A stretch of 61,516 nucleotides of DNA, taken from Patescibacteria group bacterium. Lineage in GTDB: Bacteria; Patescibacteriota; Patescibacteriia; JBHPGJ01. This document shows, one piece after another, positions 19,741 through 19,978 of this stretch. Positions within the stretch are counted from its first letter, which is position 1. Each line of letters starts with the position of its first letter. The stretch covers positions 1 through 61,516 of the forward strand of contig JBHPGJ010000008.1 of NCBI GenBank assembly GCA_042570545.1. Direction: 5' to 3'. Position numbers and translations under genes: made by a program. Under the pieces are notes generated by a model that did no database searches, was not told the origin of the DNA, and worked only from the letters and a program-made list of their open reading frames with translations.

Positions 19741-19930
19741 ATAAAACAAACCCTTCTGTGAAGGGCCTTAGGATATTATTTAAGGCGGTACCACCTTACA
19801 TTATACTTATTACATTGCTGTTACGGGCTGACCCGGCCGGCTCTACTACCTGAGCGCCTATGTTCTGGCTTATATTGAAGGGTTCTGCCGGCTGCTATCC
19901 AGATGACACTAATTCTGGATCATGGCATTT
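19741..19930 (-). promoter_or_regulatory. T-box riboswitch (Val specifier) in the valS leader
   Basis: Antiterminator AAGG-UGGUACC-GCC...GGC-CCUU (T-box at 19785-19797). Competing hairpin CCCUUC-ACA-GAAGGG plus U-tract. Stem II GCCGGC/GCCGGC with AGAA/AGUA S-turn. IIA stem CGGG-UCAG-CCCG. Short Stem I with GUC in the loop. Confidence 0.9.
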
Positions 19931-19949
19931 AAGCTTGTTAGGTGGAGCA

Positions 19950-19978
19950 ATAGTAGCTAATATAAGACCATTAGTCAA
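19950..19978 (-). promoter_or_regulatory. sigma70-type promoter of the valS leader
   Basis: TTGACT-17 nt-TACTAT on the minus strand. Confidence 0.7.

Follow-up and report, generated by a model that had tools for sequence, protein, structure and literature searches.

Can an RNA leader of about 170 nt, built on a Stem I of only 35 nt and lacking Stem III, sense a tRNA, and does the single hairpin that separates it from a start codon then act on transcription, on translation, or on both? This question is raised by a contig assigned to a Patescibacteria group bacterium (contig JBHPGJ010000008.1 of assembly GCA_042570545.1), of which the whole 61,516-nt stretch was analyzed and is referred to here as the window. 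On its minus strand the window carries valS, the gene for a 988-residue valyl-tRNA synthetase (ValRS; 16774-19740, start AUG at 19740-19738), and directly upstream of valS lies a leader at 19927-19741 of the same strand; all leader coordinates below refer to the minus strand. The element in this leader is a valine-specific T-box with an ultrashort Stem I and a terminator, without Stem III, in a member of the candidate phyla radiation (CPR). How it would switch is a matter of graded confidence. That it senses tRNA-Val(GAC), decides first by transcription termination and then adds a reversible translational layer is a combination toward or against which we would lean about equally, although its parts differ in strength and are weighed separately below.

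Identity and architecture of the valS leader

In an Infernal search run in E-value mode, Rfam family RF00230 matches 19932-19758 from the first to the last model position with a score of 36 bits (E = 1.4e-6 for the 401-nt search, equivalent to ~2e-4 when scaled to the whole window). The alignment places 6 nt where the model has 71 Stem I positions and deletes the Stem III helix, and these two deletions account for the score deficit. The default (gathering-mode) Rfam scan of the window reported six tRNAs only and not the T-box leader because the score lies below the gathering cut-off. The K-turn UGA, the S-turn GAA/AGUA, the sequence CCGUAA and AAGGUGGUACCGCC all fit the family consensus. On these grounds, joined with the comparative evidence presented in the next section, we regard it as virtually certain that the leader is a real T-box.

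Stem I spans 19927-19893 and reads UGC-CAUGA-UCCAGA-AUUAGUGUCA-UCUGGA-UA-GCA: a basal helix (UGC/GCA), a K-turn-like asymmetric loop in which CAUGA faces UA, and then UCCAGA/UCUGGA as upper helix, capped by the 10-nt specifier loop AUUAGUGUCA at the apex. There is no long Stem I with a distal platform of AG bulge and distal loop, the total length being 35 nt. The apical loop holds the valine codon GUC at 19907-19905, followed by the purine A19904, so that a specifier plus purine matching the amino acid of the regulated gene stands before valS. Stem II (19892-19836) has a base helix GCCGGC/GCCGGC and an S-turn-like internal loop in which AGAA (19886-19883) faces UAGUAGA (19848-19842), the part that aligns with the Rfam consensus GAA/AGUA. 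It is followed at 19835-19817 by CGGGUCAGCCCGUAACAGC, which comprises the Stem IIA hairpin CGGG-UCAG-CCCG, the F-box-like CCGUAA and the beginning of the linker; a convincing IIB pseudoknot partner for the UCAG loop was sought and none was found.

The linker to the discriminator domain (19816-19798) carries the conserved purine sequence AAG at 19808-19806, which is invariant in the alignment of homologs, and then 8 unpaired nt, UAUAAUGU. These 8 nt occupy the place between AAG and helix A1 where Stem III, a 7-bp helix deleted in the Rfam alignment, would be expected; the purine flank is thus present and the helix is gone. A 2-bp "micro Stem III" within the same 8 nt was considered and dropped as too weak. 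The antiterminator (19797-19761) consists of A1, AAGG (19797-19794) with CCUU (19764-19761), and A2, GCCUUA (19786-19781) with UAAGGC (19770-19765), and the T-box bulge UGGUACC lies at 19793-19787 between their 5' strands. From Stem I to the antiterminator end the element measures about 170 nt. An off-state hairpin, AGGCCCUUC-ACA-GAAGGGUUU, occupies 19768-19748, with GUUUUAU behind it and then, at 19740, the AUG; the hairpin's 3' side includes the Shine-Dalgarno (SD)-like GAAGGG (19756-19751), 10 nt before the AUG. The antiterminator and this hairpin are mutually exclusive since both need the 3' strands of A2 and A1, which form the hairpin's 5' arm (19768-19760).

The predicted ligand is tRNA-Val(GAC), found by both ARAGORN and Rfam at 42241-42317 on the minus strand. 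A second gene in the window, at 38529-38605, encodes tRNA-Val(UAC). Both genes encode an ACCA 3' end, so the UGGU of the bulge pairs with either tRNA; of the two, only the GAC anticodon is fully complementary to GUC. The anticodon loop of tRNA-Val(GAC), U-C-G-A-C-A-C, has C33 instead of the nearly universal U33, which tRNA-Val(UAC) retains. Possibly redundant for decoding beside tRNA-Val(UAC), this unusual tRNA might be kept partly as the ligand of the sensor.

An earlier note on this DNA had read the leader as a valine T-box whose Stem I is ultrashort, in a CPR-like host, and that reading holds: the Rfam alignment, GUC-A, the downstream ValRS and the patescibacterial relatives agree, each sequence element it named lies where it had been placed on the minus strand, and its pairing of UGGU with the ACCA of both tRNA-Val genes, together with the location of the cognate tRNA-Val(GAC), was likewise borne out. 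Its proposal that the leader follows the layout of actinobacterial ileS T-boxes stands for Stem I, Stem II, the IIA/F-box region and the discriminator domain, and is incomplete as to Stem III, which is missing, and the U-tract, a feature not described for the actinobacterial sequestrators. The Stem I/II layout of that ultrashort class is evident from the sequence, the Rfam alignment and the covarying helices. The known class carries AUC upstream of ileS in Actinobacteria; here the codon is GUC, the gene is valS, and the relatives are Patescibacteria.

A recurring class of minimal T-boxes in CPR contigs

Relatives of the leader were gathered by protein-guided and pattern-guided retrieval, and the metagenome loci so obtained are labelled L0xx. 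Homologous GUC leaders precede valS in L038, L040 and L053; L038 comes from an NCBI Patescibacteria metagenome-assembled genome (MAG) and is the closest relative. When the invariant 19-mer CGGGTCAGCCCGTAAYAGC was used as query, 19 metagenome stretches were recovered, 17 of which are T-box loci; the other two, L044 and L059, are chance matches in coding DNA. Ultrashort Stem I leaders with other specifiers are among the loci retrieved. L053 has GUC-A before a ValRS gene, and AUC-A stands before isoleucyl-tRNA synthetase (IleRS) genes in L046, L056 and L055. L051 combines UCC-A and a UGGC bulge with a downstream seryl-tRNA synthetase (SerRS) gene. In two further cases the gene behind the leader is not a synthetase: L047 (L047:4565-5306) has AUC-A followed by a gene for a GNAT acetyltransferase rather than ileS, and L045 (L045:257-1030), whose sequence recurs in L048, L050 and L058, has UCC-A and a UGGC bulge followed by a gene of the histidine phosphatase family (His_Phos_1) instead of serS. 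The product of the latter gene may be a phosphoserine phosphatase. A further leader with GUC-A, at L004:364-485, was missed by the Rfam scan and found with a covariance model; an HD-domain gene follows it and then, at once, valS.

Wherever a synthetase gene follows, the specifier matches it, GUC preceding valS five times, AUC preceding ileS three times and UCC preceding serS once, and the bulge fits the discriminator base of the tRNA, being UGGU in Val and Ile leaders and UGGC in Ser leaders. GUC is thus kept in all five valS-linked leaders (the window, L040, L038, L053 and L004), and the base 3' of it is C, not a purine, in L038. The proteins encoded downstream place the hosts: the SerRS of L051 matches a Candidatus Amesbacteria protein with 100% identity, the proteins nearest to the IleRS of L046 are from Patescibacteria, Microgenomates and Woesebacteria, and the ValRS of L053 is nearest to those of other CPR loci. 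Judged by sequence, the window leader is one member of a recurring CPR class with Val, Ile and Ser versions and not a single oddity, and its combination of features is not confined to this locus.

The helices of these leaders covary. MAFFT misaligned Stem I between lineages, and ten leaders were realigned instead with a covariance model derived from two of them, the window and L040, the window scoring 218 bits and the others 29-150 bits. In this ten-leader alignment 90.5% of pair cells are standard pairs, compared with 65.4 +/- 1.9 when columns are shuffled (none of 500 shuffles attains the observed value), and 21 of 29 pairs change on both sides; when the 3' partners are slid by 1-3 columns, at most 51% of cells are paired. 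A model-guided alignment is fitted to the structure, which favors these pairing figures. The Stem I of L038 and of L055 was still misaligned under the model and was read by hand. By hand reading, pairing is complete in each of the 4-9 sequence versions that occur of the basal and upper helices of Stem I, the base of Stem II, A1, A2 and the terminator, the sole exception being the terminator of L053, which is bulged and pairs at 9 of 12 positions. Every helix that varies shows compensatory changes. The IIA/F-box stretch CGGGUCAGCCCGUAACAGC is unchanged in all homologs, and the IIA hairpin is uninformative on covariation because it never varies. The leader core is also almost identical between the window and L040, while the N-terminal halves of the two ValRS proteins are 63% identical.

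Most related valS loci have no such element: a T-box was absent from the results when 25 of them were scanned with Rfam in E-value mode, and 24 of 28 CPR-type valS loci are without a T-box leader. Several retrieved loci depart from the common design. The leader of L040 (L040:1350-1480), which is the nearest sequence relative of the window leader, has a Stem II reduced to a 4-bp hairpin, CGGG-GAUACCAAA-CCCG, with no S-turn; leaders with a truncated Stem I reportedly cannot do without the S-turn. A Microgenomates serS leader at L060:420-600 has an ultrashort Stem I, UCC-A and a UGGC bulge, and no recognizable terminator hairpin or U-tract was found before its AUG; it may be a translational or a decayed variant. 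L043, a leader with a long Stem I, also lacks Stem III, and loss of Stem III is therefore not peculiar to the ultrashort class. Upstream of another Patescibacteria valS, a weak T-box (L015:1199-1500; Rfam 17.7 bits), also picked up by the covariance model, was not counted as a Val leader because a Val codon is absent from its short Stem I loop, GCCCUCAG; between this T-box and the AUG come inverted repeats of the GCTGATC type, about 100 nt in all.

Probable termination and a possible translational layer

Under the reading that we favor, the T-box would sense uncharged tRNA-Val(GAC) and thereby place valS under the control of the charging state of that tRNA. The codon would be read through GUC-A in the apical loop of the 35-nt Stem I, and no contact with the tRNA elbow is expected because Stem I is so short and its specifier is apical. 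By homology with the actinobacterial ileS T-boxes, the S-turn of Stem II and the IIA/F-box region are predicted to clamp the codon-anticodon helix. In the on state, the ACCA end of uncharged tRNA would pair with the UGGU bulge and stabilize the antiterminator. In the off state, GAAGGGUUU would capture the 3' strands of A2 and A1 instead, and the resulting hairpin with its U-tract would stop RNA polymerase just before the AUG. The primary decision would thus be co-transcriptional termination, to which a second, reversible layer could be added: full-length transcripts that lose their tRNA would refold and be translated poorly.

Termination is the better supported of the two steps, and it probably contributes. 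The off-state structure has the form of an intrinsic terminator, a G+C-containing hairpin with an immediate U-tract. A terminator scan describes a stem of 9 pairs around a 3-nt loop, with GTTTTATATG as its tail, and the stem is followed by UUUGUUUU, 7 of whose 8 residues are U and whose first three U can pair; the U residues fall within 19750-19743 and are broken by G19747. Its computed stability is -10.8 kcal/mol, compared with -6.7 kcal/mol for the antiterminator without tRNA. A U-tract, defined as at least 5 U in 8 nt, follows the hairpin in 10 of 10 related leaders, the chance expectation being about 0.075 per site at 32% U. The distances from hairpin to AUG in the ten leaders are 7, 7, 10, 12, 7, 15, 23, 27, 70 and 73 nt. 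One and the same hairpin occurs in L046, where the AUG is 7 nt away, and in L056, where it is 70 nt away; in L055 a canonical AAGGAG is located after the terminator. In the five leaders whose AUG lies 15-73 nt past the hairpin only termination can act, and the universal U-tract together with these distant start codons points to intrinsic termination as the mechanism shared by the relatives. Further gene ends of the window carry hairpin-plus-U terminators too, with an overall enrichment over shuffles that is modest.

Variants of the off state were seen as well. The minimum-free-energy fold of the window leader contains a second hairpin at 19781-19799, UAAGGUG-GUAC-CGCCUUA, formed by the T-box sequence and the A2 5' strand, which hides UGG and is also present in L040. 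The hairpin of L004 (L004:364-520) differs: its lower stem, AAGUGAA/UUCACUU, uses the AAG purines 5' of A1, encloses the whole antiterminator and does not compete with the A1/A2 3' strands. L047 and L055 have a design similar to that of L004, in which the competition is with Stem III.

The case for a translational layer comes from the clade of the window, L040 and L038. In these three leaders the sole SD-like element sits in the hairpin, whose end is 7-10 nt short of the AUG, and the distance from GGG to AUG is 10 nt in each despite different spacer sequences. With a canonical anti-SD, GAAGGG forms a duplex of -7.8 kcal/mol that ranks among the best 7 of 47 window genes. A hairpin that encloses the sole SD-like element and leaves 7 nt to the AUG should cause refolded transcripts to be translated poorly. 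Whether occlusion of the ribosome site contributes is, in our estimate, an evenly balanced matter. The earlier note had proposed that the hairpin may be terminator and SD sequestrator at once; the sharing of termination among relatives and the presence of an SD-like sequence in the hairpin uphold part of that proposal, while the dual role itself is circumstantial, the GAAGGG being forced by CCCUUC.

The alternative that survives best is a purely transcriptional T-box, in which the hairpin is an intrinsic terminator only, GAAGGG is a by-product, initiation proceeds without an SD on an A/U-rich leader, and the closeness of hairpin and AUG reflects a compact genome. The observations that bring this alternative forward are for the most part those that weigh against the combined reading. 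SD-like sequences (duplex <= -6 kcal/mol with the canonical anti-SD) precede only about 6-7 of the 47 long open reading frames in the window, and ~85% of its genes have A/U-rich leaders such as AAUAAAAAUAUG with no SD. GAAGGG resembles an SD because it complements CCCUUC, which is conserved in the T-box 3' strand; the CCCUU segment would impose this constraint on any hairpin 3' arm. The AUG of L004 abuts its hairpin although no SD-like arm is present, and the U-tract is found in all ten leaders, half of which have the AUG far downstream. On the other side, a hairpin of -10.8 kcal/mol that ends 7 nt before the AUG lies within the 30S footprint, where some effect on the translation of refolded full-length mRNA is hard to avoid, and the 10-nt GGG-AUG distance is kept in all three members of the window clade. 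We consider a purely transcriptional switch a real contender but on balance unlikely.

Other points count against the combined reading from its termination side or as a whole. The terminator stem is modest, two of its 9 pairs being G-U; fast tRNA capture by transcriptional T-boxes is said to depend in general on the elbow contact of a long Stem I (PMC7583486), which this leader is without; Stem III has been called "indispensable" for binding of the tRNA 3' end (PMC7583486), and it too is missing; the 36-bit match falls short of the RF00230 gathering score of 93; and none of the public sequencing runs searched contains the locus.

A purely translational T-box like those of actinobacterial ileS genes, with the hairpin as an SD sequestrator and the U-rich stretch as the spacer of a 40% G+C genome, would accord with the link that the literature draws between ultrashort Stem I and translational control (PMC7583486, PMC11297988) and with an SD-like GAAGGG inside the hairpin 10 nt before the AUG. 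It is nevertheless quite improbable, because the hairpin is followed by UUUGUUUU, all relatives have a U-tract, and sequestration is impossible in L056 and L053, where the hairpin lies 70-73 nt from the start codon. That the leader is a decaying relic or a chance resemblance, as its sub-threshold Rfam score, the missing Stem III and distal Stem I, and the 24 of 28 CPR-type valS loci without a T-box might suggest, is scarcely credible given a leader core so nearly identical to that of L040 beside ValRS N-terminal halves of 63% identity, compensatory changes in all varying helices, and the fit of the specifier to the downstream synthetase (Val, Ile, Ser) and of the bulge to the discriminator base in the aminoacyl-tRNA synthetase-linked leaders compared.

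The combined reading, termination first and a reversible translational layer second, can be extended into a more general proposal: that Patescibacteria possess a widespread and hitherto undescribed T-box class that decides in transcription without elbow contact and often without Stem III, and that in the valS clade one hairpin serves as terminator and ribosome-site sequestrator, giving two checkpoints in succession, the one irreversible and the other reversible, governed by the same tRNA-Val(GAC). This extension is speculative, and we would sooner expect some part of it to fail than the whole to hold.

Locus, significance and comparison with known T-box systems

All leader elements are contained in the 254-nt gap between valS and a divergent gene for an NAD-dependent epimerase, which starts at 19996 on the plus strand. 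A consensus scan located a sigma-70-like promoter, TTGACT-17-TACTAT, at 19978-19950 of the minus strand (-35 at 19978-19973, -10 at 19955-19950), which places the predicted transcript start ~15-20 nt upstream of Stem I; the L040 and L038 leaders each have their own TTGAC(T/G)-17-TAYWWT promoter upstream. The valS product was identified by Pfam matches to tRNA-synt_1 (1.4e-133), Anticodon_1 and Val_tRNA-synt_C, and its nearest proteins are all from Patescibacteria/CPR MAGs, the best being 77% identical over the N-terminal 43%. Inserts are present in the ValRS proteins of the window clade: the window protein has a rubredoxin-like match at residues 551-571, and P0002, the ValRS closest to it, has an inserted His_Phos_1 domain (L038:1501-4650).

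A CPR class that joins an ultrashort Stem I to a terminator, serves several amino acids and often dispenses with Stem III challenges two generalizations about T-boxes, and to this class the window locus adds a valine member and the overlap of hairpin and AUG. Current T-box models assign the ultrashort Stem I to slow, reversible translational switches of actinobacterial ileS genes, from which this class departs. The hairpin abutting the start codon is a simple setting in which to test whether a single RNA element can control transcription and translation together, and the ~170-nt leader is a natural minimal T-box for structural and kinetic work. In the literature covered, no description of a T-box for Patescibacteria, CPR or Saccharibacteria was found. 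The 2015 paper by Sherwood, Grundy and Henkin reportedly describes many, not all, ultrashort leaders as translational, and terminator versions may be mentioned there. Tools in standard use miss such tRNA-sensing regulation in ultrasmall bacteria, since the Rfam threshold excludes the leader and TBDB is confined in a similar way, its class II model having been searched in Actinobacteria only, plus class I matches with a truncated Stem I (PMC7778990).

The closest described systems are the ultrashort Stem I leaders, known as translational ileS switches "mostly identified in Actinobacteria" (PMC7583486, PMC11297988, PMC1262725) and represented by the actinobacterial structures 6UFG/6UFM (cited in PMC7583486). 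The window leader shares with those of Mycobacterium and Nocardia a short Stem I with an apical specifier plus purine and no elbow platform, a Stem II S-turn, and a IIA F-box, CCGUAA here and CCGUCA in N. farcinica (PMC7583486). Also common to both are the AAG before the discriminator, which corresponds in position to a described RAG or RRRxG-Stem III-AA motif (PMC11297988, PMC7583486), the UGGN bulge, and an SD-like element in the off-state hairpin. The differences are that GUC and valS in a Patescibacteria/CPR host replace AUC and ileS, that the hairpin is followed by a conserved U-tract, with which sequestrators have not been described, and that Stem III is absent.

With the canonical transcriptional (class I) leaders represented by RF00230, such as those of Bacillus subtilis tyrS, valS and glyQS, the window leader has in common the tRNA-dependent choice between antiterminator and terminator, the U-tract, and the presence of Stem II and IIA/B, as in non-glycine T-boxes. 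It departs from them in that 35 nt stand in for a Stem I of ~90 nt that has its specifier loop inside the stem besides an AG bulge and a distal loop, in the absence of Stem III, and in a terminator that directly adjoins the start codon, leaving no place for a separate SD behind it. Its nearest kin are the other minimal T-boxes of Patescibacteria, the Ile and Ser versions, with which it shares the ultrashort Stem I, the apical specifier, the IIA/F-box 19-mer, the hairpin with U-tract and the frequent loss of Stem III. Within this group it is the valine member, and what sets its clade apart is that the 3' arm of the terminator doubles as the sole SD-like element, at a distance of 10 nt from the AUG.

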